Source: Verrucomicrobiota bacterium (lineage in GTDB: Bacteria; Verrucomicrobiota; Verrucomicrobiia; Chthoniobacterales; UBA10450). From it: DNA of 24,000 nt. This document shows positions 1,519 to 20,400 of this stretch, one piece after another. The first letter of the stretch is position 1. Each line of letters begins with the position of its first letter. Location: NCBI GenBank assembly GCA_003219195.1, contig QHPX01000082.1:6340-30339 (forward strand), read 5' to 3'. The position numbers and the translations under genes are program-made. A model generated the notes under the pieces. That model had not been told where the DNA came from. It searched no databases and saw nothing but the letters and a program-made list of their open reading frames with translations.

Positions 1519-1559
1519 CTGCTTCGAAACCTAAGCCAACTCACCGGCCGTACACTTAG
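1515..1559 (+). other. Conserved post-stop extension or mini-ORF in the -1 frame of paralog A (MTASKPKPTHRPYT*). ATG 1515 overlaps stop TGA 1516..1518 as ATGA.
   Basis: This is homologous to 4602..4646 and 8173..8223. Similarity between the three loci stops exactly at the shared -1-frame stop. Core substitutions fall on third codon positions of this frame. Confidence 0.35.
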
Positions 1560-1740
1560 CAGTGTGTCTCAGTTCAACCGACCAGATGTTTAAACAGCCT
1601 GCTTGAGAGTCGCAGGTCTTGATCGTCCGCGTAAGCTCGAGCTGAGTTTGCAACACGTATGCGGCCAGTTCTTTTCTGACTCTCGATTAAAGAATGAAGG
1701 CGGAATTACCGCCGTGAATCATCAATCGAAAGGATCTGCT

Positions 1741-4605
1741 ATGAAAAAAAGCTCCTCTTCAGTAACAGCTCGCGCCACCATCGGCACACTCCTTTTGCTG
1801 ACAGCCATTACCCTGGTTGTGTTCGCGCTCTTCGCAACCGGGCTACGCTCGGCGACGCCTAGCGCAGGTACACTTAACCCTGGCGGCCCGACCGTGAGTT
1901 GGGCGGGCACCGCGGCTGGCGGCGGTTCGCTGGACGAAAGCACATGCGTCGAAGGCGTAAACTGCGATACCTTCACCCTCACCTTATCCGGCACACCGAC
2001 TGATTGGACCGGCCTGAAAGCACGTATCGTCATTAGCTCTCCCGATCCTACGGGAGCTACCGATTACGATCTGTACGTGCACAAGGGCGACAACTCCGGA
2101 CCAGTGGTACCAGGCGGAATCTCGGCGAACAGCGGAACGCCCCCGGAAGTTGTCGATCTTGATCCGAGCGACCCCGCTATTGGCACCGGCCAGTTCTCTG
2201 TGCACGTGGTTTATTTTAGTGCCACTGCCGCCTTTCAGTATTCCGGCAGCGCCAGCGCAATATCTTCATCAACTGCGTCCGCACTAATTCCTACGGCGCC
2301 TCAGGATACAGGCCCGAAGATCGGGTTCCAGAACTTCAGCGCCCCGGGAACCTTGGTGCAAGTCGCATCGAGCAGCCAGGGACCTACAGCGCACACCGTG
2401 GAATACATGGGACATGACGCGGGCGAACCCTCCATTGGGAATCACTGGAGTACCGGCGTAACAAATTTTCAGTCGGACCTCCAAACGTTATTCATAAAGT
2501 TCGATGATACCTGCCCGTCAACCGGCCAGACTGCGACCTGGTATAACAGTGCGGCGCCGACATCTCTGTTCGTCGATTCTGACCCGATCGGCTTCACCGA
2601 TCGTCAAACCGGTCGGGTATTCGCAGGAGAGCTGACTCTGCTATCACCGACGTGCAAGGTGTCATTTACAGATACAGACGGTCTTGATGCATTGGGGCAA
2701 CCGGATCAAGCCGGTTGGACGCCGAGCGAGGGAAGCGGCATCCCGTCAAGTGTCGACCACGAAACAATCGGGGGTGGTCCGTATCACGCGCCGATTCCTG
2801 CACGTCCGCCGGGCACGATCTATCCCAACGCCGTCTATTATGCCTCCCAGTCGCTGGTCGTGCTCAATGTCCCGCAAGCGTCCAGGAGCGATGATGGTGG
2901 ACTGACATTTGGGCCATCCGTCTTGACAACGTCGGCCTGTGGCGGCCTGCACGGCCACATCAAGGTTGCACCGGACGGCACCGTCTTCATCCCGAACAAT
3001 AGCTGTAGTGGCGAGGGCGCTGTGTTGGTGTCGGAAGATAATGGGATCACATGGAGCATACGCACGGTGCCCGGCACTACCTCTAACCCCGCCCTACAAG
3101 ACCCGCAGGTTGGCATTGATAATAACGGCCGAGTCTATTTTGTAATGTCCAGTGCTACTAGCACTGGCTCTCAGGCAGTTGTCGCAACATCGGACGACCA
3201 TGGTGTGACGTGGAACAACGTCTTTGACGTGGGCGCGATTTATAAATTGCAAAACGTGTTTTATCCTGCAGCGGTGGCAGCCGACGCAGGCCGTGCCTCC
3301 GTCGCCTTCTACGGCTCAACGACAGGTGGAGACGGCTCGGCAAACAGTTTCAATGGTGTCTGGCATCTCTACGTTGCAAATACATTCGACGGAGGATTGC
3401 ACTGGACGACGACTGACGTAACTCCGAACGACCCGATGCAACGCGGTTGTATATGGGCGCATGGCGGTGCCGATATCTGCCGCAATCTGCTCGACTTCTT
3501 CGACATGACCGTTGACAGCGAGGGTCGCGTCGAAGTGGGGTACGTAGATGGGTGCGCCGATGGCACCTGCGCTCAGGCAGCGCTCACCGCAAAGGGCAAC
3601 GCCTACACGGCGAGAGGTGTAATCGCGCGACAGTCGAGCGGACGCCGGCTGATCGCAAGCTTCGATCCGCCGAAGCCGCTAAGCGCTAAGTCGGCACCCG
3701 GCATGCCGTCGGTCACAGAGCGACGCGTCAATTCAGTAGTCCACCTCGCATGGTCGGAGGCCGATACCGGCAATTCCACAATTAAAAAATATCAGATATT
3801 GAGAGGCACAGCGAGTGGCGCTGAGACTCTGCTGACGACCGTTTCGGGAAGTCAAACAACTTATGACGACCTGACCGCCACCACTATTGGCACGACTTAC
3901 TATTACAAAGTGCAGGCGGTTAATAGCGTCGGCGCATCATGCGCTAACAATGAGATCGCCGCGCCCTACGTGGGTGACACATGCAGTGGCTTGATTGTCC
4001 AGCAAACTCCGACGGGACATCCGGAACAGACGGCGCAAGGGCAAGCTCCTGCCTCGCTTGCCATCGACTACATCGCAGTCGGTGAGCCGCCCGGAACAAG
4101 CAACCTCATGTTCAAGATGAAAGTAACGAGCCTCAGCTCACTGCCGACCAGCAGCCGCTGGAGGATGGTCTGGAACTCGTACGCGTCGCCAGGCGAACAG
4201 TTCTACGTTGGCATGAGAACGGATCAGAACGGAGCTGTCACCTTTGAGTATGGGACTGTCGCCACCGCCGTCGTCGGTCTGGTGATTGGCGTCCCGACAG
4301 AAACTCCAATCGGAGCCTTGCCCGGAAGCAGCTTTAACGCTGACGGAACGATCACGCTCATCGTCTCCAAATCCGCCGTCGGCAATCCACAGCCCGGTGA
4401 TCTGCTCGGAGCCGTTAACGGAAGGACGTTCACCGGCGATACCAGCGAGACTCAAAACTTGGAGCGTTCGACCCTGCTGGTAGACCATACGTTCGTTAAA
4501 GCGCAGAGGGACAATGGCCATCCGGCGGCCACATACATGTTGGTCGGCAATGTCGCTTGTGGAGGGGCTACTCCTACACCCACACCAAAGCCTCATAAGA
4601 AATAA
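1741..4605 (+). CDS. Secreted PPC-like + Asp-box/BNR beta-propeller + FN3 + beta-sandwich protein, paralog B
   Basis: ATG 1741 is preceded by GAAAGGA (1728..1734). The N-terminus MKKSSSSVTARATIGTLLLLTAITLVVFALFA looks like a signal peptide. DYDLYV sits in the N-terminal beta-sandwich. Asp-box-like motifs are SDDGGLTF, SEDNGITW, SDDHGVTW and TFDGGLHW. The FN3-like segment is HLAWSEADTGNSTIKKYQILRGT...YYYKVQAVNSVG. The tail is TPTPTPKPHKK*. The track start 1603 (TTG) would add 46 residues with no signal-peptide character. Confidence 0.85.
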   Translation: MKKSSSSVTARATIGTLLLLTAITLVVFALFATGLRSATPSAGTLNPGGPTVSWAGTAAGGGSLDESTCVEGVNCDTFTLTLSGTPTDWTGLKARIVISSPDPTGATDYDLYVHKGDNSGPVVPGGISANSGTPPEVVDLDPSDPAIGTGQFSVHVVYFSATAAFQYSGSASAISSSTASALIPTAPQDTGPKIGFQNFSAPGTLVQVASSSQGPTAHTVEYMGHDAGEPSIGNHWSTGVTNFQSDLQTLFIKFDDTCPSTGQTATWYNSAAPTSLFVDSDPIGFTDRQTGRVFAGELTLLSPTCKVSFTDTDGLDALGQPDQAGWTPSEGSGIPSSVDHETIGGGPYHAPIPARPPGTIYPNAVYYASQSLVVLNVPQASRSDDGGLTFGPSVLTTSACGGLHGHIKVAPDGTVFIPNNSCSGEGAVLVSEDNGITWSIRTVPGTTSNPALQDPQVGIDNNGRVYFVMSSATSTGSQAVVATSDDHGVTWNNVFDVGAIYKLQNVFYPAAVAADAGRASVAFYGSTTGGDGSANSFNGVWHLYVANTFDGGLHWTTTDVTPNDPMQRGCIWAHGGADICRNLLDFFDMTVDSEGRVEVGYVDGCADGTCAQAALTAKGNAYTARGVIARQSSGRRLIASFDPPKPLSAKSAPGMPSVTERRVNSVVHLAWSEADTGNSTIKKYQILRGTASGAETLLTTVSGSQTTYDDLTATTIGTTYYYKVQAVNSVGASCANNEIAAPYVGDTCSGLIVQQTPTGHPEQTAQGQAPASLAIDYIAVGEPPGTSNLMFKMKVTSLSSLPTSSRWRMVWNSYASPGEQFYVGMRTDQNGAVTFEYGTVATAVVGLVIGVPTETPIGALPGSSFNADGTITLIVSKSAVGNPQPGDLLGAVNGRTFTGDTSETQNLERSTLLVDHTFVKAQRDNGHPAATYMLVGNVACGGATPTPTPKPHKK

Positions 4606-4646
4606 CTACTCCAAAGCCTAAGCCAACTCACCCTCCACATCCTTAA
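4602..4646 (+). other. Conserved post-stop -1-frame extension of paralog B (ITTPKPKPTHPPHP*); it has no ATG, with ATA at the homologous position
   Basis: Same alignment as 1515..1559 and 8173..8223, with TAA at the position that is TAG in the other two. The parent gene stop here is TAA 4603..4605. Confidence 0.3.
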
Positions 4647-4927
4647 CCGTTTCTTATCTAAAACGGCTGGCGATTAAACAGCGCGCTGAAACGTTGCTGC
4701 TGTTGTTCTGGCACCTCAACAGCGATCTTGTGATGTTGTTGTGTGTTCCCGGGGACTAATTTTTCTTTTCAAAAGCTGAGCGACCTTCTCGTACAGATAC
4801 TTTTTCGCGATTCGCGGAAGTAATTGTCGATCTCAACTTTCGTCGGGATCGCCGAAAAATCCTTCCCCGAGAGGCGTCCAACCGAGCCCGGGTTCTTCGA
4901 TTCCTCATACGTAACACAGGAGATCTC

Positions 4928-7900
4928 ATGAAAAAAAATCCTGCTTCGCAGTCCGGCCTTTTCAATCCCCGCGTCTTGTTAGCTTTTTGCCTTTGTTCAG
5001 TTGGCGGCTTGCTAGCTATGCTCAGCTTTGCGTCAACACCGTCGAGCGGAACGCTGACCGACACGTCCGGCCCCGTGACTTACACGGCCGGGCCATTTTT
5101 CGTAGCGAATCCCACTCCGGTGATCGAGGTTGACAGTGGCCCGGAATGCAACGGTTCGCTTCAGCCTTGCGACGATTACGCGTTGACGGTGACTCTGCCG
5201 TCTGGTTATGCCGCCGCGCATCCAAACGCCGCGATCAAGGCCACCATGAGCTGGACCGATAACGGCAGCGGCGCCTCGGACTACGACCTTTACATCTACA
5301 AAAATCCCCGCGGCGATTGCAGCCCCCAAGATTGCACGACCACAGACGGTTCCGAGGCGGCTGATTACCAATCGGCGAGCAGCGCTAACCCTGAGATCGC
5401 AACCATCAGCCCGCTGGCCGATGGCACTCAGAAGTACACCGTGGTGGTCGTGCCGTTCACACCGACTGGCGAAAGCGTCCATGTGACAATCGAATTACTG
5501 CCGGGTTCCGGGAGCGGGGGCGGCGGCACCGGCTTCGGAGGGCCCGATCCAACCACCCCGGGCGTTCCGCGCTACCAGAATTTTTATGCGCCCGCCAGTA
5601 GCTCTGCCGAAACCAGTAACGGCGAGTTCAACATTGGATTCAATCCTCACACCGGCCGAATCATGACGATGAATATCGGCCCGATCTGGCGCCTGACTCC
5701 GCCGGAGCGTTTGTCGCAAGCGCAGCCCGAGTGCTGCGAGGCGCTCTGGGAAGACAAAACCAATCTCACCACCATAACAGGTCTTGATCCAATCCTATTT
5801 ACCGATCAGAAGACCGGCCGCACTTTTGCCTCCAATTCCACTGTTGGCGCTAACGCTGTTTACGGATACAGCGACAATGACGGAGATCTATGGGTGCCGC
5901 TAGCTGCTTCACCGGCCAGCGGCGGCACCGATCATGAAACCATAGGCAGCGGTCCGTATCCCCCTGCGTTGAGCGCACTCTCAAACGCAGTCAATCAGGG
6001 GGAGGCAGTGTACTACTGCTCTCAATCATTCCCTCTCGGTCCCGCCACCTGCCAACGTAGCGATACCTTAGGTGCCAGTTATGGCCCGGGCGTACTGGCA
6101 TATGAAGGCAACGGTATCACGCAGTGCAGCGGTTTGCACGGCCATGTTCATGTCGCGCCGGATGGCACAGTCTGGCTGCCGGTCAATCAGTGCGGCGGCA
6201 AGCAGGGCGGCGCGCTGAGTACAGACGCAGGCACAACTTGGCAGGAGTTCATCGTCACGGGCAGCATCTCGCAGACCCAAGGCGCCGATCCTTCGATCGC
6301 GATCGACTCTGATAGCACCGTTTACTACGCCTATGTCAACAATGAGCCGGTCGCCGCGGGGAATCCGCCTGAAGGTCACGCGCGCGTCAAGGTAGGTCAC
6401 CGCAATCCAGATAACAGTGTCACCTGGACTAATGACTTCGACATCGGCGCATCTCACGGCATCGTGAACGCAGCGGAGATCGAGGCCGTAGGCGGCAGCT
6501 CCGGCCGTGCCGCGGTCGGCTTCCTTGGCACCAATGTCGCGGGCGATTACCAGGCGATAAGTTTCCCGGGCAAATGGTACGCCTTCATCGCCACCACTTC
6601 TGACGGTGGCCAAACCTGGACGACGGTCAACGCGACTCCGAATGATCCTGTTCAAAGCATGACCGGTGTCTGGCAGCAAGGGGGCAACCATCAAGACCGC
6701 AATCTTCTTGACTTCAATGAAATCACCGTGGACGACAAAGGTCGAGTGCTCTACGGCTACAGCGACGGCTGCGTGACGGAAGGCTGTATCGCCGGCACCG
6801 CGCCCAACGATTTTGTTGCCTTCATGCGCGTTGCACGTCAGTCCGGAGGCAAGAGTTTGTTCGCAAGTTTTGACACTGCGGAACCCGTAGCGCCGAAACC
6901 TCCTTGCCTCTCCGGCACACGCGATCCCTCCGCTTCCCATCTCACTTGGAAGGCCCCGGACAACGGCGGCTCTGACGTTGGTAACTACCAGATCTTGCGC
7001 GGAACATCGCCGGGTGCGGAGGCGCTGCTAGGCCAGACCGACAAAACCACCTTCGACGACACCACCGCCGATCCCGCTGTGTCACACTATTATTATGTGG
7101 TTAAGGCGATCAATGCCATCGGCACTAGTAGTTCGAGCAACGAAGTGGACCTAACAGTGGTCGTACCGCCGCCGCCAGAAAATGTCTGCGCGCTGCCTGG
7201 CCTGACCAAGCTCACGGACCCCGCTGGTGACACGTACATTTTAATCAACTTTGGGGTGCCTACTCCGGCCCCACCAGGTGCGGACCTGCTTTCCTTCCAA
7301 ATCGCTCAGCCTTATGCCGAGGACAATGTCATCAGGCTGGCGTTCACCATTAACACCGACAACGGCCAGTCGCCCCAGCCCCTGGGTACGTCCTGGTATG
7401 TCGCAATGAAGATACCTGACCCCGCCCCGGCAACGACTTTCCATTACCGTGCCGTGCACATGACTTGGAACGGCACCACGCCGACCTTCGAGTCCTATAC
7501 GCCGGCCCCCAACGGCAGCGGGGGAGTTGATGGCCGCTTTGTAACTGCCGGCAGTCAGAAGCCGGCCGAGCCGAGCAGTGGTTACGCCCCGCCATTTAAC
7601 AAGGTCGTCATTGTGGTCAAGGCGAGTGACCTTGGCTTGAACCCCGGCGACACCATCAGCGGCTTCGTTTCAGCAGTGTCGCAGACTGCGGGCGGTGTAA
7701 TCACGGGGTTGTATGATGACATGCCCGACAGTCTCGCCTTTACTGGCACCTACACCGTGAACAGCAACCAGTTCTGCAGGCCAAACGCTGCGCCGACAGC
7801 GGTGTTAACGGCAACGCCTACCTCGGGCACTGCGCCATTGACCGTGAACTTCGACGGCTCAGGTTCATACGATCCGGATACTGCGCCGCCGCCAGACACC

Positions 7901-8176
7901 ATCGCCTCCTATACCTTCAGCTTCGGCGATGGCTCATCTGCGGTCACACAATCCACGCCGACTATTTCACACATCTACAATGCGGCAGGTAATTATCCTG
8001 CACAACTCACCGTCACTGATTCCCGTGGACTACAAAGCACAAACACCGCACAGGTCGTGATCTCGGTCGCTCCAGCTAAGAAAGGCCATGGAAAGCCGAC
8101 CCCCACACCGACGCCAACTCCAACTGCAACGCCAAGTCCAACTCCCACGCCTACACCGAAGCCTCATAAAAAATGA
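4928..8176 (+). CDS. Secreted PPC-like + Asp-box/BNR beta-propeller + FN3 + beta-sandwich + PKD-domain protein, paralog C
   Basis: ATG 4928 is preceded by AGGAG (4918..4922). The signal peptide is MKKNPASQSGLFNPRVLLAFCLCSVGGLLAMLSFA. It has DYDLYIY; the Asp-box-like motifs SDNDGDLW, STDAGTTW and TSDGGQTW; NLLDFNE; and the FN3 segment LTWKAPDNGGSDVGNYQILRGTSPG...YYYVVKAINAIG. A PKD-like domain (TAPLTVNFDGSGSYDPD...YTFSFGDGS...HIYNAAGNYPAQLTVTDSRG) spans about 7781..8068. A long PT linker leads to the tail TPTPTPKPHKK*. Confidence 0.85.
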   Translation: MKKNPASQSGLFNPRVLLAFCLCSVGGLLAMLSFASTPSSGTLTDTSGPVTYTAGPFFVANPTPVIEVDSGPECNGSLQPCDDYALTVTLPSGYAAAHPNAAIKATMSWTDNGSGASDYDLYIYKNPRGDCSPQDCTTTDGSEAADYQSASSANPEIATISPLADGTQKYTVVVVPFTPTGESVHVTIELLPGSGSGGGGTGFGGPDPTTPGVPRYQNFYAPASSSAETSNGEFNIGFNPHTGRIMTMNIGPIWRLTPPERLSQAQPECCEALWEDKTNLTTITGLDPILFTDQKTGRTFASNSTVGANAVYGYSDNDGDLWVPLAASPASGGTDHETIGSGPYPPALSALSNAVNQGEAVYYCSQSFPLGPATCQRSDTLGASYGPGVLAYEGNGITQCSGLHGHVHVAPDGTVWLPVNQCGGKQGGALSTDAGTTWQEFIVTGSISQTQGADPSIAIDSDSTVYYAYVNNEPVAAGNPPEGHARVKVGHRNPDNSVTWTNDFDIGASHGIVNAAEIEAVGGSSGRAAVGFLGTNVAGDYQAISFPGKWYAFIATTSDGGQTWTTVNATPNDPVQSMTGVWQQGGNHQDRNLLDFNEITVDDKGRVLYGYSDGCVTEGCIAGTAPNDFVAFMRVARQSGGKSLFASFDTAEPVAPKPPCLSGTRDPSASHLTWKAPDNGGSDVGNYQILRGTSPGAEALLGQTDKTTFDDTTADPAVSHYYYVVKAINAIGTSSSSNEVDLTVVVPPPPENVCALPGLTKLTDPAGDTYILINFGVPTPAPPGADLLSFQIAQPYAEDNVIRLAFTINTDNGQSPQPLGTSWYVAMKIPDPAPATTFHYRAVHMTWNGTTPTFESYTPAPNGSGGVDGRFVTAGSQKPAEPSSGYAPPFNKVVIVVKASDLGLNPGDTISGFVSAVSQTAGGVITGLYDDMPDSLAFTGTYTVNSNQFCRPNAAPTAVLTATPTSGTAPLTVNFDGSGSYDPDTAPPPDTIASYTFSFGDGSSAVTQSTPTISHIYNAAGNYPAQLTVTDSRGLQSTNTAQVVISVAPAKKGHGKPTPTPTPTPTATPSPTPTPTPKPHKK

Positions 8177-8332: not shown

Positions 8333-9334
8333 ATGCAATTCTCGCGAATGATTGGAGCAGCAGTTCTTTTGGTTCTCGTATCAGGTGCGCTCGTCTCGAC
8401 GAAGCTCTCCCGTGCACAGTCTGCGGCCGCAGAGCAAATCGTTGTGACCGGAGAGGAAGTGCCCAGCGCTTACGGTGCGCCGCCGGGGATTTCGCGCAGC
8501 CGCTTTTCACCGCTTACCAATGCGTATGTGTTGCCGCCGGGCGCAGTCTACGGCGGTTTGCTCTATGAAGGAGACGCGTTTCGGCATGGACCGCCCGATC
8601 ATCTCTTCATCGAAGAGGTCGAAATCGGATTACCGCATCGTTTCGGACTTGCCTTCGAAATCAGCCAGGAGCGTTTCAACGGCGACTTCCAAAACAAGAG
8701 CTTCAGCGTTGAAGCGCGTTACGCACTTGCCGACTGGAACAAAATTCCGCTGAATCCGACGCTATTCGCCGAATACAAATTCGGCACCGGGCGTATTCTT
8801 CACGAGGAACGCCCGCCGGAACAAGACATGGCCGAAGAAGAAGCGAGTCGCCAAGCGCATCTAAACCTCGAAGACATGAGCAATGAAGGTGACCTGAGCG
8901 CGGAAGGAAAACCCAAAATGCCCGATGCATATGAGTTCAGGCTTTTGCTTGCTGAAGACTTCGGCGAGCGGATCGAGTGGGCAATGAACTGGTTCTTCGA
9001 GCAAGAAATCGGTTTTGATCGCGGCCGCGAGTGGGGCTTTGCCCAAAGCGCGGTGATTCCGATTTTGCTCGAGCACGAACGTCTCAAAGCCGGCGTCGAA
9101 ATGCAGTACCGGAATTTCACTGACAAGGACACGCGCGGCGATCCACTCCACAGCTTCGTTGTCGGCCCGACCATCGCCTGGAAACCGACGCACAATACCC
9201 GCGTTGACGTTTCCCCGCTCTTCGGATGCACCGACGATGCGCCCCGCGCGCAAGTCTTCGTTGTCTTCTCGATGTTATTTGGGCCGGGCGGCGAAACCGG
9301 AGCCGAAGCGCCCGCTTCAACGCGTAATCGCTAG
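8333..9334 (+). CDS. Putative outer-membrane beta-barrel protein of unknown function
   Basis: The signal-peptide-like N-terminus is MQFSRMIGAAVLLVLVSGALVSTKLSRAQS. There is a series of short amphipathic strand-like segments (FGLAFEISQE, FSVEARYALAD, TLFAEYKFG, YEFRLLLAEDF, IEWAMNWFFEQE, AGVEMQYRNF, VVGPTIAWKP, QVFVVFSMLF). An acidic insert (EERPPEQDMAEEEASRQAHLNLEDMSNEGDLSAEG) is present. No catalytic motif was recognised. Confidence 0.55.
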   Translation: MQFSRMIGAAVLLVLVSGALVSTKLSRAQSAAAEQIVVTGEEVPSAYGAPPGISRSRFSPLTNAYVLPPGAVYGGLLYEGDAFRHGPPDHLFIEEVEIGLPHRFGLAFEISQERFNGDFQNKSFSVEARYALADWNKIPLNPTLFAEYKFGTGRILHEERPPEQDMAEEEASRQAHLNLEDMSNEGDLSAEGKPKMPDAYEFRLLLAEDFGERIEWAMNWFFEQEIGFDRGREWGFAQSAVIPILLEHERLKAGVEMQYRNFTDKDTRGDPLHSFVVGPTIAWKPTHNTRVDVSPLFGCTDDAPRAQVFVVFSMLFGPGGETGAEAPASTRNR

Positions 9335-9454
9335 AATATTTTTCTGCCGCGGCCGTCTATGACCAGCGGAATAATGCGACGCTCCTGGAGCGCCGCTCCA
9401 AGGCTTGACCGCTTCTCTTCGCCTCCGTAGCCTTTTTTCAGAAAGGAGCACGAG

Positions 9455-9691
9455 GTGAAAACCGAGATATCGATCGAATACTGCGTGGTTTGAAACTACA
9501 CACCCAAGGCCGTCAGTTTGGCGGCCAAAATTCTCGAACTCGGCGAGCGTATCAAGTCGCTTACTCTCGTTCCTTCGAGCGGCGGAGCATTCGAAATTCG
9601 CGCCAATGGAAAACTTCTCCATTCCAAACTCGATTCCGGCGATTGGCCGGACTTCGATGCCATTGTGCGCGACATCAAGAAACTCAAGTAA
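9455..9691 (+). CDS. SelW/Rdx-family selenoprotein (CxxU redox motif) with in-frame UGA = Sec at 9491..9493
   Basis: GTG 9455 lies 6 nt after AAGGAG (9443..9448) and is the first start after the in-frame stop at 9428. The translation is VKTEISIEYCVV-U-NYTPKAVSLAAKILELGERIKSLTLVPSSGGAFEIRANGKLLHSKLDSGDWPDFDAIVRDIKKLK*. This matches the Rdx pattern IEYC-x-x-C/U ... L-P-x-x-G-G-x-FE ... G-x-L-x-SK ... G-x-FP. It is absent from the ORF track because of the UGA. A hairpin follows the UGA, and the gene lies next to tRNA-Sec and selDAB. Confidence 0.85.
9508..9526 (+). promoter_or_regulatory. Candidate bacterial SECIS hairpin for the SelW-like gene
   Basis: ggccgtc AGTTT ggcggcc forms a 7-bp stem (one G-U pair) with loop AGUUU. 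The loop G at 9516 is 23 nt after the UGA. The same loop sequence occurs in the selD hairpin. Confidence 0.55.
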
Positions 9692-9768
9692 TCGCTCTTT
9701 TGCTTCTTCTGTAGCTCGGCGTTGGACCTTGAACGTTGGGCGTTGGACGTTTTCTGTTTTTTCTTTCC

Positions 9769-9862
9769 GGAGAGTGAAGGGTGCCTGGTGGCCCTCGCGG
9801 TCTTCAAAACCGTCGCCGCCGCGCAAGCGGCGAGATAGGTTCGATTCCTGTCCTCTCCGCCA
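9769..9862 (+). tRNA. selC: tRNA-Sec (anticodon UCA), 94 nt with encoded CCA
   Basis: The anticodon loop CU-UCA-AA is flanked by the 5-bp stem gcggt/accgt. A D-arm of about 6 bp has the 4-nt loop TGGT. The long variable arm is cgccgc-cgcgcaa-gcggcg. The T-arm is atagg-TTCGATT-cctgt. The acceptor GGAGAG.. pairs with ..CTCTCC, followed by discriminator G and CCA. The overall layout resembles E. coli selC as I recall it. Confidence 0.85.
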
Positions 9863-9888
9863 ATTCCATATTTTAGATCGCGTTGTAG

Positions 9889-9918
9889 CTGCCGCCGTCA
9901 CCGCGGCAGACCCATTTT
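9889..9918 (+). terminator. Weak hairpin plus T-run between tRNA-Sec and selD (possible partial terminator or processing site)
   Basis: ctgccgc (9889..9895) pairs with gcggcag (9903..9909) across a 7-nt loop. TTTT at 9915..9918 is separated from the stem by 5 nt, so this is not a canonical intrinsic terminator. Confidence 0.25.
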
Positions 9919-9936
9919 GGAGAGGGGGTGAGTCGG

Positions 9937-10989
9937 ATGTCGCGCGACCAAATTCGTAAACTAACGTCGCTCTCCTCCTGCGCGGGGTGAGCTTCCAAGT
10001 TGAGCCAACAGGCCCTGACGCAAGTTTTGCGTCAGCTTCCAATTTCCACGAACGCGAAAGTGCTCGTCAATTCGTACACGTTCGATGACGCCGGCGTTTA
10101 TCGTTTGGATCGACATCGTGCGCTCGTGCAAACGGTCGATTTCTTCACGCCGATTGTGGACGATCCATTTGCTTACGGCCAAATCGCCGCCGCCAATGCG
10201 CTCTCCGATGTTTTTGCCATGGGGGGCCGGCCGCTCACGGCCTTGAACATCATGGGATTTCCCGCTGATTTGGTTCCGTCGAAGACAATTACGTCGATTT
10301 TGCGCGGCGGTTATGAGAAAGCGGCCGAAGTTAGCTGCGCAATCGTCGGCGGACACACCATTCGCAATCCGGAACCAATTTACGGTCTTGCGGTCACGGG
10401 CATTGTTGACCTTCGACACATGATGACGAACGCAAAGGCGCGGCCCGGCGATTTGCTTGTCCTGACAAAACCGCTCGGCACCGGCATCGCCACAACTGCG
10501 CTCAAACGCGGCCTTTGCTCGCGCGAGGTCGAGCGAAAAGTCATTTCATTAATGTCGAGAATAAATTCGGTTGGCGCCAAGCTCGCCGAAAAGAAACTCG
10601 TGCGCGCGGCAATCGACGTCACTGGTTTCGGATTGCTCGGTCACCTTGCGTCGATGTGCCGAGCCAGCGAAATGAGCGCTGAAGTTTTGAGCGACCGGGT
10701 TCCGGCAATCGACGATGAGATATTTGAATTGATCGCGCGTGACTGCATTCCCGGCGGCAGCCGCGACAACCTGAAAAGCGCGAACAGCATTGTCGACTGG
10801 CAAAAAACGCCGCAGCCGCAACGAATTTTGCTCACTGATGCACAAACGAGCGGCGGTTTGCTTCTCGCTGTTGCGCCGAGCCGTCTCAACAAAGTGCTCG
10901 CGCTGCTCAAACGGAATCGCACAACATGCGCCGCCATCATCGGGAAAATTGTTCCAGCGCGCGAACCGCTCCTATGCATAAAGAAGTAA
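9937..10989 (+). CDS. selD: Selenide, water dikinase (selenophosphate synthetase), selenocysteine-containing form; UGA = Sec at 9988..9990
   Basis: ATG 9937 lies after GGAGAGGGGG (9919..9928) and is in frame with track ORF 10000..10989. The N-terminus reads MSRDQIRKLTSLSSCAG-U-ASKLSQQALTQVL. It aligns with the E. coli SelD active-site segment [25 protein letters not shown], with U at the Cys17 position and K at the Lys20 position. Downstream come DDAGVY, TVDFFTPIVDDPFAYGQIAAANALSDVFAMGG and the AIR-synthase-like fold motifs. Confidence 0.85.
10015..10035 (+). promoter_or_regulatory. Candidate bacterial SECIS hairpin for selD
   Basis: ctgacgca AGTTT tgcgtcag forms a perfect 8-bp stem with loop AGUUU. 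The loop G at 10024 is 34 nt after the UGA. Confidence 0.5.
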
Positions 10990-12344
10990 CTGCTTCGCGC
11001 CGCGCCATTCCCTCAGTCACGAAGGTGCTCGATTCGCTAGGCAAAATCGATTTAGCCCGGCCGTTGATTGTCGATCGTGTCCGACGAGAACTTTCGAGAA
11101 TCCGCGCCTCGGGCAAGATTCCTGAATTTCGATCGATTGTCGATCTTGTGCGCATTTCGCTCGAGGAGCTTCGTGCCAGCCGGCTGCAACCGGTCATTAA
11201 CGGAACTGGGATCGTCATTCACACAAACGTTGGCCGCGCCCCGCTCGCTTCAGCGGCAGTCCATGCGCTCAGCGAAGTTGGCTCGGCCTACTCCAATCTC
11301 GAGTACGATCTGATGACGGGTGGCCGAGGACACCGCGGCGCTTACATCGAGACCGCGCTCGCGCTGCTTTGCGGCGCGGAATCGGCCACGGTCGTGAACA
11401 ACTGCGCCGCCGCGCTGGTGCTGATCGTTCAACATTTTACCAGGACCAAGCCGGAAGTCGTCATCTCGCGCGGTGAACTTGTCCAAATCGGCGGTGAATT
11501 TCGCATCGGCGAAATCCTCGAGGCGACCGGCGTGAAGTTGCGAGAGGTCGGAGCGACAAACAAAACAGCGCTCGCCGATTACTCGCGAGCAATTGGTCCA
11601 CAGACCGGAATAATCTTGAAAGTTCATCGCAGTAATTTTTTCATGAGCGGTTTTGTCGAATCGCCTTCTTCGACGGCAATCGCCAGGCTCGCCCGAAAAA
11701 AGCGCGTTCCCTTTGCTGAGGATTTGGGCAGCGGCGCGATCGTTGCGACGGAACAATTTGGAATACCAGAGCATGAGCCGACGCCGGTTGAGGCGCTGGA
11801 AGATGGCGCCGATCTTGTTTGCTTCAGCGGCGATAAGTTGTTCGGCGGACCGCAAGCGGGGATTATCGCCGGGAAAAAGCGGTTCATCGCCGCCCTGAAG
11901 CGCGAGCCGCTATTTCGCGCGTTGCGCTGCGACAAACTGATTCTCACGGCGCTGCAATCGACTGTCGATTTTCACCTCACTGATTCGACGTCCGAAATCC
12001 CGGCAATCGCGTTCTTGCGGATTTCCAAAGACGAATTGCGCGCACGCGCCGCGGCGATCCTTGCCCGGCTTCGCGGATTACCGCTGCAAATCGCGATTGG
12101 GCGCGGCACCGTTAAAGTCGGCGGCGGCACACTGCCGAGGTCAGTGATGTCGTCAATCACGATCGATATTTTTCCGGAGAGTTGTTCTGTCCAGGATTTC
12201 GCGAGCACTCTTCGTCAATCGGTTCCACCGGTCATCGGTTACGTCGCGAATGAGCGGTTCAAGCTCGATCTGCGCACGATCTTTCCGCAACAGGACGACG
12301 CTGTCGTTGACGCGATTCGAACCGCCTGCGCAGCGACTCACTAA
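10974..12344 (+). CDS. selA: L-seryl-tRNA(Sec) selenium transferase
   Basis: MHKEVTASRRAIPSVTKVLD... has the SelA-type N-terminus. FSGDKLFGGPQAGII matches the SelA PLP-lysine motif. ATG 10974 is preferred to track start 10926; it gives a 16-nt overlap with selD instead of 64 nt. Confidence 0.85.
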   Translation: MHKEVTASRRAIPSVTKVLDSLGKIDLARPLIVDRVRRELSRIRASGKIPEFRSIVDLVRISLEELRASRLQPVINGTGIVIHTNVGRAPLASAAVHALSEVGSAYSNLEYDLMTGGRGHRGAYIETALALLCGAESATVVNNCAAALVLIVQHFTRTKPEVVISRGELVQIGGEFRIGEILEATGVKLREVGATNKTALADYSRAIGPQTGIILKVHRSNFFMSGFVESPSSTAIARLARKKRVPFAEDLGSGAIVATEQFGIPEHEPTPVEALEDGADLVCFSGDKLFGGPQAGIIAGKKRFIAALKREPLFRALRCDKLILTALQSTVDFHLTDSTSEIPAIAFLRISKDELRARAAAILARLRGLPLQIAIGRGTVKVGGGTLPRSVMSSITIDIFPESCSVQDFASTLRQSVPPVIGYVANERFKLDLRTIFPQQDDAVVDAIRTACAATH

Positions 12345-12355
12345 TTCTCGTCCAG

Positions 12356-14281
12356 ATGACGGAAAAACATTTCATTCTCGCAACCGCCGGCCATGTCGAT
12401 CATGGCAAGAGCGCGCTGGTCAAAGCGCTTACTGGAATTGATCCCGATCGCCTGCCGGAGGAAAAGGCACGGGGCATCAGCATCGAACTCGGGTTCGCGC
12501 AATTGATTCTCCCCGGGCCTGACGAGCAGCGGTACCACGTAGGAATTGTCGATGTACCTGGTCACGAAGATTTCGTCCGAAACATGATTGGGGGCGTTGG
12601 CTCGATCGATCTCGCACTTCTGGTTATTGCAGCCGACGACGGTTGGATGCCGCAGACAGAAGAGCACCTCCAAATTCTGATTTATCTCGGTGTGAAACGC
12701 GCGCTGATCGCGCTGACAAAGAGCGATCTGGGTAAGATCGACAATATCGCTGGGCAAATCCGCCACCGGCTACGCGACACTCCGGTTACAAGTTCACACA
12801 TCATTCCGACTTCCGTTCGCACCGGCGAAGGAATCGAAAATTTAAAACGCGCGCTTGCCCTGGAGTTCGCAACTCTGCCACCGCAACGCGATATCGGGAA
12901 AGCGCGCCTGTTTGTCGATCGCGCGTTTACGTTGCGCGGCATCGGCACGGTCGTGACCGGCACATTAACGGGTGGAAAACTCCGACGAGGCCAGAATGTT
13001 ATCGTCCAACCGCAAAATGTTTCCTCGCGTATCCGCTCGATTCAAAGTCACGGACGCGATCTGGAATCCGCCGAGCCCGGGATGCGCACTGCGGTCAATT
13101 TACCCGATGTCGAACTTGGAACCGGCCCGGCGGCGATCAAGCGCGGCGACGTGGTCACGATTGTCGATCTTGTTGCGCCCAGCGCGACCTTTGATGTTCT
13201 GCTCGAAAAATCGCCGCGCCTGAATCGAAGCGACCCGGCGGCGCGTCCGCTGAGAAATGGAACCTCGATTTACGTTCACCACGGCACCGCGCGCGTTTCG
13301 GCGAAGGTTGCGTTCCTTGAAGAAGAAACGTTGGCCTGCGGCGAAAGCTTGCTCGCGCGTTTGCGACTGAAGTCGCCCATCCTCGCCCTGCTCGGTGATC
13401 GGTTTGTTATTCGCGACTCATCAGAGCAGCATACGATCGCTGGCGGGATCATGCTGGATCCAGATGCTGATCGATCGAATTTTCAAAGCGCAGGCCAAAA
13501 GCGGCTTTTAAAACAGCGCGCGACTGCGCCGCACGATGTCGATCTTTGCCTGCAATCGGAACTTGCTCGCAGCGGCATCGCGGAAAGCAAGACGTTGCTG
13601 CGCAAATCGCACTTCAGCCAGGCTGAAATCACGTCTGCTTTGCTTCGGTTACAAGGTCGAGGCGCAATTATCTTGCGTAGCGAAATTGCCGCCGCTGCCG
13701 GCAAGTGGCTTGAGCTCGTACACCGCGCAAGTGAACTGATCGACACAACGCACAAAAAACATCCGGAAAAGCGCGGCCTTGAGCTTGCTGAGTTGCGCGC
13801 GGCATTGCCCGATCAATCAGCTGACGCTTTCGACGCGCTCCTTTCGGATTTGTGCGCAAACAGTTTTGTTCGAGCCGGCACGTCAATCGCACGCGCATCG
13901 CACCGTGCCGCATTGCCGCCGCAGATTCAGCCGGCCGCGGAGAAGATTCGAACCGCACTCTCGGCAAAGCCTTTCGATCCACCCGCGCGCAAACAAATCG
14001 CGCAAGATCGACATCTACAGCAGGCGCTCCGATTTTTGATCGAACAAGGCGAAGTCGTCGAAATCGGTGCTGACGTGGTCTTGTCGCGAGAAGCGTTCAC
14101 CCAAATGAAGGAAGCGGTCACGGCGTTCATTTCAAAAAACGATTCCGCCATCGTGGGCGAACTCCGCCATGAACTTCAGACATCGCGCCGAGTCATTGTC
14201 CCCTTGCTTGAGCGGCTCGATCGCGAACGCATCACCCGCCGCACTGGAGATCGACGAACGTTGGTCGCGATGAAATTGTAG
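12356..14281 (+). CDS. selB: Selenocysteine-specific translation elongation factor
   Basis: The GTPase motifs are AGHVDHGKS (G1), DVPGHEDF (G3) and TKSD (G4). The EF-Tu-like domains are followed by a long C-terminal extension of about 300 aa, which in SelB forms the SECIS-binding winged-helix region. The gene sits immediately after selA. Confidence 0.9.
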
Positions 14282-14310: not shown

Positions 14311-17300
14311 ATGGTTCAGAGAAGCGCCAACGAGCGACAAAATGTGCGACATGTGACGCTTCATATTGGCGCCTCGTTTGAGGCCGCTTGGGAGAGCGTG
14401 CTCCAGCCGTGGTTTGAGTCTGTGTCTCAGATCGCTTGCGCCATCGCTAAGCCGGCGGTCGTTGTTTTGCCTTACCAGTCTCGCACCCAATTCTTCCGCT
14501 ATCGCCTCCTGGAGGCAGGCATCCCGCTCCTGGGAGTAAAATTCGTTGCTCCGTTGCAACTGCGGGAAATTCTCCTCCATCCGGCGGGAGTTAAATTGCC
14601 GCTCCGCGAGCACCTTCGTCTTCTGCTTTCCTTCGCAGCGGAGCAAGTCATCGCAGCGAACTCCGAAAATGAAGCCATCGACGCGACTATTGCCGCCGCA
14701 AAAACCGTCTGGCGCGCGCCCGATCATCTGCTTCGTACAATCGACCGGCTAAACGCTGCCGGCTGGTCTTTCGATGAGATCGGGCCACCGGCATTTCAAA
14801 AAGTTCTCTCTCGCTTTCGGACTCTGATTAAGAAGTGCGGCTTCACCTCTATTCACGAAGCCGACCGTCTTGCCCTGGCCCGGGCTGAGAACGCAGAGAA
14901 AATTTTTAGCAATTTGCTGGTTGCGGGATTCGACGGAGCCCACTGGCCGCTTTGGCCAATGCTCTCGGCCGCGACAAAAGCATCAGCCAAGGCCACAGTC
15001 GTTCTGACCGACCCTCGCGATGAAGCCCGTGATCTCGATGAATGTTGGATCGGAACCTGGGAACAAACATTTGCCGCTGCTCTACCAATCGAGCCGCCGA
15101 CCCGCGTGGCAAGAATATCTTCTCGCCAAATTTCCGGCGCTGCCGATCAAAAAAGTCAGCTCGAGCTTTTTGCGGATAAACTTGGCCGGCCAGTTCATTT
15201 TCTTCTGGGCCGCGAAACAACTGAAGAAGCTCGCGCTATTTCTACTCTTGTTTTGAAATTCCTCACCGAGCCTTCCGCTCGTCGCATTGGTGTTTTGTTT
15301 CCCTCCGCCGGCGCACTTGCCCGATCGGTCGCAGCGCTTCTCAGCGAACTCGAGATTCCGCACTACGATTCGATCGCTCATCTGATAGCGCCCACAATAG
15401 ATGATCTTGCCTGGCAAGCCTGGCTGCAGTTGCAGGAAAACAACCGGCTTAATCCTCTCCTCCACTTTCTATCGACCTTTGAAAACAACGCACGCCTGCT
15501 CGGCGACGTGACGCTGGAGCAAGTCGAGAATATTTTACGCCGCGCTTATCGACAAATCCTGATCGATGACATCGCGGTGCTGCGCGAATATTGCGCGCAT
15601 CACTCGACCGAGGAGGCTGCACCAGCAGCTGCAGTTCGCATGGCCGGCGTGAGATTTTTACCGGCAGCCGCGACTTTCCCGGAATTCATCAGGCAAACTT
15701 CCGAAATCTTCGCCGAACTGGGCTGGGAAAACCGGAAGATTGAATTGGAAAGATTGAGTAAGGATTGGAGCGAAACTATCGACGGCTCCTTTTCGCGCCA
15801 GAGTTACCTGCGGTGGCTACGTGAGATTCTCAGCAAACCGACGCGATCACGCGACCGATGCGGCGATCATCCCTACAGCCGCGTCCATTTGCTTTCGTTT
15901 AGAGAAGCCGAAGGGCAGGAGTGGTCGCATCTCATCCTCGCCGGGCTGAACGAAGGCGCGTGGCCGCGATCGGACAACGAATCGGATTTTGTTCGCGACG
16001 AAGAGATCGATGCTCTCAATCGCCGGATCAAAGTCTTGAACCGGCGCGCGATCGTGCAAGGCCGCCACGGAGAAGGACAGTGGAGCGTTAAGGAGGGAAA
16101 AACGTTGTGCCTCGGTTCGATCGAGCGGCAGCAGATCGCCCTCCGGCAGATGGCTAACTTGATGGAATCAGCGGAACAAGGGTTGGCAATCAGCGCGGCC
16201 TTGTTCACCGAATCATCTCCGCGGCGCATCGCCAATCCGAGCGAGTTTTTTTCCGGTCTGTATTTCAATCTCCATGGCAAGGCGCTTTCCCAACCCACGC
16301 TCGAAGCGATGGAGAAACAGACACATGAATGGGTGGAACAATCCGGCTTGCTTGTCAGAAAAGCGCGAGATGAAGCAGCCGTTGCGCAAACGCGAATTGC
16401 CTATAATGAGCGGCGCGCCGAAAAAAAAGCTGGTGAGTTCGAATTTGCCCTTCGGGCGCCGCTGATCGAGCCAATCTCACTTTCCGTATCGGAGTTCGAA
16501 CGATTATTCAAATCGCCGGCGCTCATCTGGATGAAGTCCTTTCTCGGCGTTGAGGCGGACGATCTCGATCTCGAGCAATGGAACCTAGCCGTTGGCATTT
16601 GGGTGCATGAATGGCTACGCGAGATTGTTGATCGCCCTTCCGCCCAAAGTTTCGGAAAACTTGGTTCCGATGCGCGAGAGCGCGTCCAGCGCGCGGCCAC
16701 GACGTTTCGTGACGAGATCGCAACAATGTTGAAACGATGCGGTCGCGCCGTGCCGGATTGGTGGAGCTCGACCTGGCACAATGCCTTTTACATATCGAAT
16801 TGTTTCGCTGGACATGTCGCCGCGACCAAGGAATGGCCCTATGCGGCGACGGAATGGTCGCTCCGCGCTTTGCCTGCAATTCAGATAAACGGCGCCGATG
16901 GACTCAAACTGCGCGGTCGCATCGACCTGATTCTGGCCAAGGAAAATCCAACTACCAACAAATTTACTGAGGAAGATCTCTGGGTGGTCGATTACAAAAC
17001 CGGAAAACGCAAAAACCTTCGCTCATCGCAGTGGCGGTTAGAGGACGACATTCGAAACGGAGTCCTCAAACAACTGCTCAAGGGCGAAGGCGTGCAAGTC
17101 GGCTTGTATGCTTTAGCGCTGGGTCAACTTGGAGCCAAAAACGTCGGGATCAGTTTGTTGGCGCGAGGTCTCGATCTTTCCGCGCCGCAGTTGATGCTGC
17201 CGCAGATCACGTGTCACGATCAGGTCTGGCGCGAACTGTCCGGCATGGAGAAGAGCGGTGTCTTCGGAATGCGTGGAGCGATTCGCTCTGAGTTTAATTT

Positions 17301-17412
17301 CACCGACGCATATCCATTGGCTACTCTGGCGGTCGATTACGACATCCTTGAAACAAAATGGACGTTGACACATCCGGCCTTTGCGACCGAATCGCCGGAG
17401 GAGGAACCATGA
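14311..17412 (+). CDS. addB: AddB-type subunit of helicase-nuclease complex (PD-(D/E)XK nuclease, degenerate helicase-like N-terminal region)
   Basis: It is 1033 aa long. The C-terminal RecB-family nuclease motif is GRIDLILAKEN...LWVVDYKTGKR...QVGLYALAL. I could find no Walker A motif. It is translationally coupled to the UvrD-like partner through an ATGA overlap at 17409..17412. Confidence 0.7.
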   Translation: MVQRSANERQNVRHVTLHIGASFEAAWESVLQPWFESVSQIACAIAKPAVVVLPYQSRTQFFRYRLLEAGIPLLGVKFVAPLQLREILLHPAGVKLPLREHLRLLLSFAAEQVIAANSENEAIDATIAAAKTVWRAPDHLLRTIDRLNAAGWSFDEIGPPAFQKVLSRFRTLIKKCGFTSIHEADRLALARAENAEKIFSNLLVAGFDGAHWPLWPMLSAATKASAKATVVLTDPRDEARDLDECWIGTWEQTFAAALPIEPPTRVARISSRQISGAADQKSQLELFADKLGRPVHFLLGRETTEEARAISTLVLKFLTEPSARRIGVLFPSAGALARSVAALLSELEIPHYDSIAHLIAPTIDDLAWQAWLQLQENNRLNPLLHFLSTFENNARLLGDVTLEQVENILRRAYRQILIDDIAVLREYCAHHSTEEAAPAAAVRMAGVRFLPAAATFPEFIRQTSEIFAELGWENRKIELERLSKDWSETIDGSFSRQSYLRWLREILSKPTRSRDRCGDHPYSRVHLLSFREAEGQEWSHLILAGLNEGAWPRSDNESDFVRDEEIDALNRRIKVLNRRAIVQGRHGEGQWSVKEGKTLCLGSIERQQIALRQMANLMESAEQGLAISAALFTESSPRRIANPSEFFSGLYFNLHGKALSQPTLEAMEKQTHEWVEQSGLLVRKARDEAAVAQTRIAYNERRAEKKAGEFEFALRAPLIEPISLSVSEFERLFKSPALIWMKSFLGVEADDLDLEQWNLAVGIWVHEWLREIVDRPSAQSFGKLGSDARERVQRAATTFRDEIATMLKRCGRAVPDWWSSTWHNAFYISNCFAGHVAATKEWPYAATEWSLRALPAIQINGADGLKLRGRIDLILAKENPTTNKFTEEDLWVVDYKTGKRKNLRSSQWRLEDDIRNGVLKQLLKGEGVQVGLYALALGQLGAKNVGISLLARGLDLSAPQLMLPQITCHDQVWRELSGMEKSGVFGMRGAIRSEFNFTDAYPLATLAVDYDILETKWTLTHPAFATESPEEEP

Positions 17413-20400
17413 TCGCGCCATCTGATCACGCGCAACGCGAGCGTTTTTGCTGCGACCTTGAGACCAATTTCTCCGTGGTCGCTGCGGCCGGCTCCGGAAA
17501 AACGCGCGCCATCACCGATCGCATCGTGCAAATCGCGCGCAGCTCAGGCGCCCTCGAATGGCTGCCCAAGTTGGTCGTCGTTACTTTCACCCACCGGGCA
17601 GCGGACGAAATGCAGAGGCGCGCGCGACAAAAAATCCTCGAAGCGCGCGTTTCGTTCGATGTTGTCGCGGCCTTCAATCGCGCCTTCTTCGGCACGATCC
17701 ACAGTTTTTGCGTAAGACTCCTGAGTGATTACGGACATTATCTCGGTTTGCCGCCGCGGCTCGATTTGATCAGCGATGACGACGAATTATGGCATGACTT
17801 CGTGCAAAGCCGGACTTCAATCGGCCATTGCTTAAGCGAGGAGAATCGCCGCATTCTCTTACGACATGTTCCCGTCCGGCAATTAATGGAACTTGGGCGC
17901 CGCGGAAATGTTTCTTTGCCCCACGCGACTGAGTTTGGACCCTGCCCCGAGCTCGATCTGGACGGCATTTATCGGTTTTCGCCATCAGCGAGATCTCTCG
18001 AAAAAATTGAGCGAGGTCACGCGGAAGTGCGCGAATGGGAAAATGCTTATCGCTCTGGCGTCGATTTTCTTCCGCTTCTGGAATGTCCTTCGAGTGCGCA
18101 GGGCTTCGTCGCCGTGTGGGACGAAGCTTTCGGCCCGTTCCGCAAATGGCTGAATTGCTGCGCGCTGTCAGTCGCCGCCAAAATCCAAAGCGCTTATCGC
18201 GACTTTCGGCTCGATCACGGTGTCCTCACCTACGACGACCAGATCGCGCTCGCCGATTCACTTTTACAACATCCAATCGCTGCCGATCGCATCCGCGAAC
18301 GAAATTTCCGCGTCATTCTCGACGAGGCGCAGGACACTGACCCGCAGCAGTTCTCGATATTGCTGGAGGTTGCGCGGCCTGCGAGAGCGCGTGGTCATTG
18401 GCTCGAGACTAGGACCGATCCGCCACGCGCCGGCCATTTCTGCATGGTGGGCGATTTCCAGCAATCGATCTTTGGCGACCGCGCGGATCTCAAACAATAC
18501 CGCCGCATCCACGAAACCCTTGTCGAAGGCGACGCCGGCGACGCGCTCGAGTTTGCAGTAACCTTTCGGCTCGATCAACGACAGCTCGACTTCGTTAACT
18601 CCGTTTTCCCGCTTCTCCTCAACGAGCAGGAAAACCAAGTCAAATTCGTTGAATTAAATCCACGTCCCGGCCTTCTGCCCGGGCAGGTTGTCCGTTTGGA
18701 CATTCAGGCCGAAAACGAGCGCGCGACACGCGACAAACAAAGTGAACGGCAGAAGGCGGACAAAGAAGCGCGCCAGGTCGCGGCCTGGATCAAAAAAAAC
18801 GGCTTGGAAAACTTGCGCGCATGGTGCTGGAGCGATGTCGCAATTCTGTGTCCGCGAAAAATTTGGTTGCGCCCGTTGCAGGAAGCACTCCGTCGGGTCG
18901 GCCTGGATGTGCAAACGCAATCGGACAACGAATTGAACGCCGATAATCCCGCGCACGCCTGGCTGACCGCACTTGTTACCGTTCTGGTCAAGCCACAGCT
19001 TAGTTACGAAATCGTTGGAGTGCTTCGCGAAATCTTTGGCCTCTCTGATGACGATCTTGCACGATTTTCCGATGGCAGCGGGCAGCGGTTTCAAGTTCAA
19101 TCAATTACCGGAGAGAAAGGCGTTGTTGCAGAAACGTTGAATTCCCTGGCCGCCCTTCGGGACGCCATTCGCTCCGCACCGCTTTACCAGGCGGTTTGCC
19201 AGGCCGTCGCTGACGTGCGCTTGCGCGAGCGACTCGAGAGTCTGCCAAGCGATGAATTTGACGATTTGAGCACTGAGCTTGACCGGCTTCTCGTTACAGC
19301 GGCTACGGCCGAAGCGGATGGAAAAACGCTGGCCGAGTTCGCGCGCGATCTGCGCGCCAATTTCGACGCGCCGCGCGAATCCGGGCCGGCACGACGCGAT
19401 GCCGTGCAATTAATCACCGGCCAAAAGGCGAAAGGCTCGGAATGGGACGCCGTGATTGTGCCGTTTCTCTCCCGCGAAGTGCGCACCCGGTCGCCCGATT
19501 ACGCTCGCATCGTCAGGATCCCGCCAACTGGCGAGCTGGTGGTCGCGCTTGGGCGCGACGATACGAGCAAAGAGGTCAAAGATGCGCTGAAATTGGCGGA
19601 GCGCCAGGAAATGGAGCGCTTGCTTTATGTTGCCCTGACTCGGGCAAGACACACTCTGGTGCTTGCATTCGATCACGCTCTTTTTCATACCGCGCAAGGC
19701 GCGAGTCCGAAAAATTCGCAGGCACGGTGGCTTCGCAGCGCCGAAACGGAAGAGAACAGTAAGGTTTTCGGAAAGCTCCCGAAAGAGACGCAATACTGCG
19801 CTGCAACGCAAGAACGGCAACGGGAAGACACGATACAACGAGAGTTAGAACAGAAATTAACTCTGCTTCCAGAAGTTGGAGCAAAGACAAAGAGCGACGG
19901 TTTGAAACGCGCCGCGGATTACGTTCGCAAATTAAACCCGAGCCGCGTCGCCGGCGGGCGCATCTTGCCAATCACCGGGTCCGACACTTGGAAAGAAACC
20001 GACCCCGAATTACGACCACTAGCGGTGGAGAGTGCGGCCACACGATATGGGCTATGGTGGCACGAGTTCGCGCAGCGAATTCCGTGGACAGCCGACGCGA
20101 ACACTTGCACAAGAATATTCGACGAGCACCAGTTACGTTCACCGGACACGGCTCGCTCGCGTCGGGAATGGCAGCGTTTGCAGGAACATCTTAACGATTC
20201 GACTGATTTCCGACAAAAGTTCGCGAGCGACAGTGTACTTTTGCATTCGGAAATGCCGTTTCTCTGGCCGGGCGAAGCTTCAAAATGCGTAGAAGGAATT
20301 GTCGATCTTGCGATATTTGATCGCGCCAAACGGGAATGGTTAATTCTCGATTGGAAAACAAACCGGATCAGCCGCGATCAAACCGCTCTATTGCGCAAAC

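Follow-up and report, generated by a model that had tools for sequence, protein, structure and literature searches.

A selD gene of Chthoniobacterales very probably encodes a selenocysteine-containing selenophosphate synthetase, and public gene calls cut it short

Where does the selD gene of contig QHPX01000082.1 begin, and what happens at the UGA that lies in frame ahead of its annotated start? Both questions arise from a single stretch of 24,000 nucleotides, called the window here. A mechanical list of its open reading frames lets selD begin at TTG 10000 and gives it 329 amino acids, and the identical protein is deposited in GenBank as the 329-aa SelD of a Verrucomicrobia MAG. A sequence-only reading of the window had proposed a different beginning, at ATG 9937, with translation passing through UGA 9988, so that the enzyme would itself be a selenoprotein. 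In our opinion this proposal is right, and we hold it with high confidence: selD very probably encodes a selenocysteine-containing selenophosphate synthetase, in which the UGA at codon 18 is recoded by means of a SECIS hairpin at 10015-10035.

The frame itself is easily verified, and on translation the ATG, the in-frame UGA and the TTG start of the listed ORF all proved to be where they had been placed. The coding sequence covers 9937..10989 on the plus strand and specifies 350 residues, residue 18 being the putative selenocysteine; it opens with ATG 9937, has a sole internal TGA (9988..9990, plus strand) and ends with TAA at 10987-10989. Its N-terminal translation reads MSRDQIRKLTSLSSCAG*ASKLSQQAL..., and 3' of the TGA an intact ORF of 332 codons follows. 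The Shine-Dalgarno-like sequence that was claimed ahead of the ATG is present as well. A purine-rich tract, GGAGAGGGGGTGA, occupies 9919-9931, and GGGGGTGA, read from the sequence at 9924..9931 of the plus strand, stands 5 nt 5' of the ATG; nine relatives keep a counterpart at this position, in the form of AAGGAGGTGA, GGGGGTGA or GGCGGTGA, 5-8 nt ahead of their own ATG.

Do the codons upstream of TTG 10000 belong to SelD? All homology tests of selD were run with U written as C. Against TIGR00476 the full product scores 372.7 bits (cut-off 125) over model positions 1-309 of 311, while the product of the TTG start scores 349.3 bits over positions 16-309; the 21 upstream codons thus match the N-terminal loop of the SelD family, as they should if the longer frame is the gene. 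The full product also scores 357.5 against NF002098 (cut-off 299), and both Pfam domains of the family, AIRS and AIRS_C (PF00586 and PF02769), are found in it. A phmmer search of the PDB aligns residues 2-343 to residues 2-339 of E. coli SelD (3u0o) with E=7e-74, and this alignment puts U18 on Cys17, K21 on Lys20 and S20 on Cys19. Hence U and K do fall where the sequence-only reading had put them, on the catalytic Cys and Lys of the E. coli enzyme; its CxxU arrangement is there too (C15-x-x-U18), and Ser indeed stands where GCGCK of E. coli has its second Cys. In the crystallised SelD of Aquifex aeolicus it is the loop SSGCAAK that aligns with the U18 loop. This loop, flexible and glycine-rich, is the site of the catalytic Sec or Cys and of the Lys in selenophosphate synthetases (PMC7595633).

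The alternative that has to be taken first is the annotated one. According to it UGA is a true stop, SelD is made from TTG 10000 as a protein of 329 aa, and the 17 upstream codons are a leader peptide or non-coding. Gene callers pick the TTG for nearly all close homologues, and it does have a possible ribosome-binding signal, since an SD-like GGGGTGA (9984-9990), which includes the putative Sec codon, lies 9 nt before it; this is probably the reason why gene finders accept the start. However, a protein begun there would be inactive, because the catalytic Sec or Cys and the Lys would both be absent, and synthetases truncated N-terminally in this way, so that the Cys/Lys loop is missing, fail to complement E. 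coli deficient in selD (PMC7595633). The upstream peptide, moreover, can be aligned with the N-terminus of SelD, and its frame is conserved.

That conservation is best seen in relatives. We compared ten genome loci from Chthoniobacterales, Spartobacteria and Verrucomicrobiota MAGs, at 64-90% identity. In nine of them selD codon 18 is TGA, and in the tenth (L009) it is TGC. Each of the nine TGA relatives has the same 17-codon peptide, the ATG and an AGGAGGTGA-like SD before the TGA. When the 17 upstream codons are compared over all pairs of ten sequences, synonymous codon differences (285) far exceed non-synonymous ones (96), which indicates that these codons are under purifying selection. A start at the TTG is, on the contrary, not conserved: of 56 close relatives 15 have CTG, CTC, CTA, CTT or TTA in its place, none of which serves as a start. 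It had been asked whether homologues begin at the position equivalent to 10000. In public calls they do, but the underlying DNA keeps the upstream frame, the ATG and the SD. Taken together, we consider initiation at the TTG, with the UGA as a stop, to be very improbable.

Metagenomes widen the comparison. One full-length homologue (P0088, at locus L011) differs from the present gene by one base at the codon in question, having TGC for TGA. We also scanned metagenome contigs for the pattern S-C-A-G-UGA-A-S-K/N, which by its own construction demands the Cys at -3. At least 120 loci were found, and among the matches listed 114 are SelD genes with SCAG-U-ASK, which belong to several clearly different lineages; the motif is therefore widespread and no peculiarity of contig QHPX01000082.1. 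Two natural Sec-to-Cys variants are thus at hand, L011 (192-194, TGA to TGC) and L009 (247-249), and in the Cys-type L009 a tRNA-Sec gene still lies directly upstream of selD.

If the UGA is decoded as selenocysteine, a bacterial SECIS should follow it closely within the coding sequence. The sequence-only reading had pointed to a perfect 8-bp hairpin with an AGUUU loop, and such a hairpin exists: the arms CUGACGCA and UGCGUCAG pair perfectly and leave AGUUU on 8 bp. In the minimum free energy fold a ninth, A-U pair is added, with arms CUGACGCAA and UUGCGUCAG, and a GUU triloop is left. The candidate SECIS hairpin hence extends over 10015..10035 of the plus strand (5' arm 10015-10023, GUU loop 10024-10026, 3' arm 10027-10035); folded alone, these 21 nt give -11.7 kcal/mol, and 33 nt (9991-10023) separate the UGA from the loop. 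As a standard we used the bSECIS model of Zhang and Gladyshev (bSECISearch), as summarised in a review of 2026 (PMC13188914, legend to Fig. 2). The model describes an upper stem of 4-16 bp that carries an apical loop of 3-9 nt, a G among the first two loop positions that is usually followed by G or U, a distance of 16-37 nt from UGA to apical loop, and an MFE of -7.5 kcal/mol or lower (PMC13188914). The selD hairpin agrees with it in all four respects, that is, in loop and stem size, the G-U beginning of the loop, spacing and MFE, its spacing of 33 nt being close to the top of the range.

Comparative data speak strongly for the hairpin. In all 56 distinct close-clade sequences the loop triplet is GUU, GUC or GUG. 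In these sequences 94.6% of the cells of the main helix are paired, and three pairs show compensatory changes, pair 4 being found as CG, AU, UG, UA, GC and GU, pair 5 as GC, CG and UG, and pair 9 as AU and GC. For the two-helix structure 95.5% of cells are paired in the 56 sequences; sliding the 3' partners gives 22-46% in controls, against 95.5% and 83.3% observed in the two alignments. Changes on both sides of a pair occupy 59 cells of the 56-sequence alignment, as compared with 19.2 +/- 3.3 after shuffling, and none of 500 shuffles reaches the observed number. A wider set of 80 sequences, picked by a Q-V peptide motif alone, has 90.7% of the main helix paired and compensatory changes at 6 of 9 pairs. 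The stem is not uniformly perfect in relatives. Pair 6 (10020/10030 of the window, columns 39/49 of alignment A2) is an A.C mismatch in 21 of the 56 close relatives, where an Arg codon CGA stands opposite GCC, and the SECIS stem apparently tolerates it.

One may object that the peptide, rather than the RNA, is what is being conserved here. Two observations speak to this. Substitutions in the stem change the encoded residues in either arm, codon 28 being T, M, S, R or A with codon 32 R or P; since these compensatory changes are not silent, it is the RNA pairing that constrains the protein at the SECIS. Further, the Cys-type genes offer a natural control. L009, the more distant of the two, keeps the L-x-x-V-L peptide context and has only 4 of 9 stem pairs, the hairpin being lost, so coding constraint alone does not explain the hairpin. 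L011, a very recent Cys variant, retains 8 of 9 pairs and thus carries a fossil SECIS.

A search of 9400-10150 against Rfam matched no SECIS family, either at the gathering threshold or at E<=10, and returned only tRNA-Sec and chance-level hits. This may reflect a library without a suitable bacterial SECIS model, rather than count as evidence against the hairpin. A second structural candidate was considered, owing to unusual conservation of synonymous sites, at 10004..10013 of the plus strand, where RNAalifold predicts a 3-bp mini-hairpin, GCC-AACA-GGC. Close relatives show no variation in it and in the wider set no more than 66.7% is paired, so that we regard it as unsupported. As a separate matter, the SCAG-U-ASK SelD genes of other clades (L013, L040, L060, L082, L096 and others) have a different hairpin about 10 nt nearer to the UGA, for example GCUCCUGGAGAUCUCCAGGAG (clade ASKMAPGDLQEVL) and GGGGCAGGGGGUCCUUGCCC (clade ASKLGQGVLARVL). 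Given these differing hairpins, at least two or three SECIS architectures exist inside one motif class.

The neighbours of selD are of the kind that selenocysteine decoding needs. Upstream, a tRNA-Sec gene (selC) with anticodon UCA lies at 9769..9862 on the plus strand, found by ARAGORN and by Rfam RF01852 (62.2 bits, gathering 47), and all ten genome relatives likewise have a tRNA-Sec ahead of selD. Downstream, on the same strand, follow selA for the Sec synthase (10974..12344; TIGR00474, 473 bits; Pfam SelA) and selB for the Sec-specific elongation factor (12356..14281; TIGR00475, 305.6 bits), which begins 11 nt 3' of the end of selA. Pfam finds GTP_EFTU, Beta-barrel_SelB, SelB-wing_2 and SelB-wing_3 in the selB product, the wings being the winged-helix SECIS-binding domains. 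The ATG of selA (10974) sits inside the 3' end of selD, so that the genes overlap by 16 nt (10974-10989, TATGCATAAAGAAGTAA). The overlap motif TATGCAT is present in the window and in seven relatives (L001-L006 and L011); in L007 and L008 an ATG lies just 5' of the selD stop in another context (CATATGCCTGA), and L010 is N-masked there. This conserved overlap suggests that translation of selA is coupled to that of selD, and hence to recoding of the UGA.

A second gene of the locus repeats the pattern of selD. At 9455..9691 of the plus strand, upstream of tRNA-Sec and selD, lies a SelW-like gene of the Rdx family, the translation of which gives 78 aa with CVVU at residues 10-13. Written with C for U, the product matches Pfam Rdx (PF10262) over positions 1-73 of 74 with E=1e-17. 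Its UGA is at 9491-9493 and a SECIS hairpin with a GUU loop is predicted at 9508-9526; the ORF list gives the gene only as a 57-aa fragment from TTG 9518. All 51 related loci that have the gene have the TGA, and in them too the gene lies upstream of tRNA-Sec and selD; a hairpin is predicted in most relatives. The two hairpins of the locus differ in UGA-to-loop spacing, 22 nt in the SelW-like gene against 33 nt in selD, and their stems are unrelated. The apex, a GUU triloop closed by A-U, is common to both, and from this comparison of the two hairpins we would suggest that the local SelB recognises an A-GUU-U apex.

Some further features of the region deserve mention in their own right. Between tRNA-Sec and the SD of selD, at 9889-9909, there is a perfect 7-bp GC-rich hairpin, CUGCCGC-CGUCACC-GCGGCAG, followed by ACCCAUUUUGG. 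A promoter and terminator consensus scan of 9300-10100 made no call, so by that scan the hairpin is no canonical terminator; it may serve in processing or attenuation. The flanks (292-8176 and 14311-23297) hold genes that look unrelated to selenium: two long ORFs with some 1000 aa each, presumably for secreted proteins, with BNR/fn3 and PKD domains, an AddAB-like pair of a PD-(D/E)XK nuclease and a UvrD helicase, a myo-inositol-1-phosphate synthase on the minus strand and an outer-membrane efflux (OEP) protein. Pfam returned no match for the ORFs 292-1518 and 8333-9334.

With the hairpin and the machinery in view, a second alternative can be judged, namely that the UGA is read through by something other than selenocysteine. 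A near-cognate Trp- or Cys-tRNA, for example, could decode it, the product would be a sulfur or non-catalytic variant, and the hairpin would only stimulate readthrough. The idea is not unreasonable: Cys is functional at this position in E. coli and occupies it in the close relatives L009 and L011, and insertion of Cys at a low level could conceivably help to bootstrap the system. Yet a complete Sec-decoding set adjoins the gene, the hairpin fits the bSECIS model, TGA is an ordinary stop elsewhere in the window, and clade-wide retention of TGA instead of TGC is hard to explain if Cys were what the gene intends. We therefore regard this alternative as very improbable. Genome-wide reassignment of UGA, a related thought, is ruled out by the same stops, TGA ending 6 of the 10 other ORFs checked in the window. 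The last alternative, that the TGA is a nonsense mutation in a pseudogene or an assembly or sequencing error, has nothing specific in its favour beyond the fact that metagenome-assembled genomes do contain errors, and is extremely improbable, as 9 independent genomes and over 100 metagenome contigs share this TGA and have the downstream ORF intact.

If selD is decoded as we believe, events would run as follows. Ribosomes would initiate at ATG 9937. SelB, carrying Sec-tRNA(Sec) and GTP, would attach by its C-terminal winged helices to the mRNA hairpin (10015-10035) and deliver Sec at UGA 9988, whereupon translation would go on to TAA 10989. In the protein, Sec18 and Lys21, both in the flexible N-terminal loop, would take part in forming selenophosphate, and Cys15, three residues before Sec18, could form a selenenylsulfide with it. 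The reading frame, the alignment, the conserved UGA, the paired and covarying hairpin and the adjoining genes are what we observed; insertion of Sec, binding of SelB and any role of Cys15 in this selD we infer from them.

It is tempting to go further. The UGA at codon 18 might be a selenium gate for the whole Sec operon of the Chthoniobacterales clade, and the conserved Cys15-x-x-Sec18 pair might define a mechanistically distinct subclass of SelD. We think this bolder version unlikely, and mention it for what would follow if it were true. When Sec-tRNA(Sec) is scarce, termination at the UGA would uncouple selA and perhaps, by polarity, selB, which would make selenium use a bistable, self-reinforcing on/off switch; a distinct subclass would mean a selenenylsulfide in place of the Cys17/Cys19 pair of E. 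coli.

The consequences for annotation are more tangible. The protein collection gives lengths of 329, 323 or 309 aa for nearly all close homologues, and those listed are 21 to 41 residues short, with the full-length Cys-type P0088 as the sole exception. In the shortened calls selD lacks its catalytic residues, and of the SelW-like neighbour either 57 aa are left or nothing at all. Anyone who used calls of this kind to survey how soil Verrucomicrobiota use selenium would count too few selenoproteins. A covariance model for the clade could be started from the aligned SECIS hairpins, 56-80 in number. The scientific gain is, in our opinion, little, and the practical value lies in annotation.

How does all this compare with what is known? 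FdhA and SelD are described as having the widest distribution among bacterial selenoproteins (PMC1794560; for SelD likewise PMC13188914), the SelD family is ranked second among prokaryotic selenoproteins in how widely it occurs, and Sec-to-Cys conversions in SelD, like those of L009 and L011, are documented (PMC1794560; PMC13188914). The sequence-only reading had stressed that a Sec-dependent SelD creates an autocatalytic dependency, selenophosphate being needed to make the enzyme that makes it. As an interpretation this stands, but it is not new: Sec-type SelD and the notion that it depends on itself have been known for a long time (PMC1794560; PMC13188914), and this self-dependence was raised, as a hypothesis of autoregulation, as early as 1996 by Guimaraes et al. 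(PNAS 93:15086), to judge from the citation of that work in PMC1717018.

The Sec-type SelD proteins of other bacteria (Haemophilus influenzae, Aquifex aeolicus, many Deltaproteobacteria and Clostridia; TIGR00476) are likewise AIRS-like two-domain enzymes, with Sec in the N-terminal loop three residues before the catalytic Lys, an in-frame SECIS after the UGA, and a gene linked to the Sec machinery. The loop differs slightly, being S-C-A-G-U-A-S-K (CxxU) here and S-S-G-C-A-A-K in the solved A. aeolicus chains. In native A. aeolicus SelD the residue at that loop site is Sec, and the H. influenzae loop is G-A-G-U-G-C-K. The host here, unlike those of textbook Sec-type SelD, belongs to Chthoniobacterales/Verrucomicrobiota, and its public gene calls are shortened. 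E. coli SelD (3u0o) has Cys rather than Sec, and hence neither a UGA nor a SECIS; Cys19, at +2, supplies its second thiol, and the enzyme described here has that thiol at -3 (Cys15) and Ser at +2. The hairpin shares with the bSECIS consensus its position directly 3' of the UGA within the coding sequence and its small G-U apical loop. It has no sequence resemblance to the SECIS of E. coli fdhF and ends in a minimal GUU triloop closed by A-U. Eukaryotic SEPHS2 (SPS2) offers the same logic, since there too the selenium donor is made by a selenoprotein, with a positive feedback loop as the result; the eukaryotic SECIS, however, lies in the 3' UTR and works with SBP2/EFSec, while here it would lie in the coding sequence and work with SelB.

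The differences from textbook Sec-type SelD, that is, the CxxU with Ser at +2, the GUU triloop and the host lineage, are minor. This selD is a standard Sec-type SelD, the phenomenon is ordinary, and what we have described is a wrongly annotated member of a known selenoprotein family. Little in it is new: the public calls of the clade are shortened (329 aa), and the genes form a conserved module, SelW-like(Sec)-tRNA-Sec-selD(Sec)-selA-selB.
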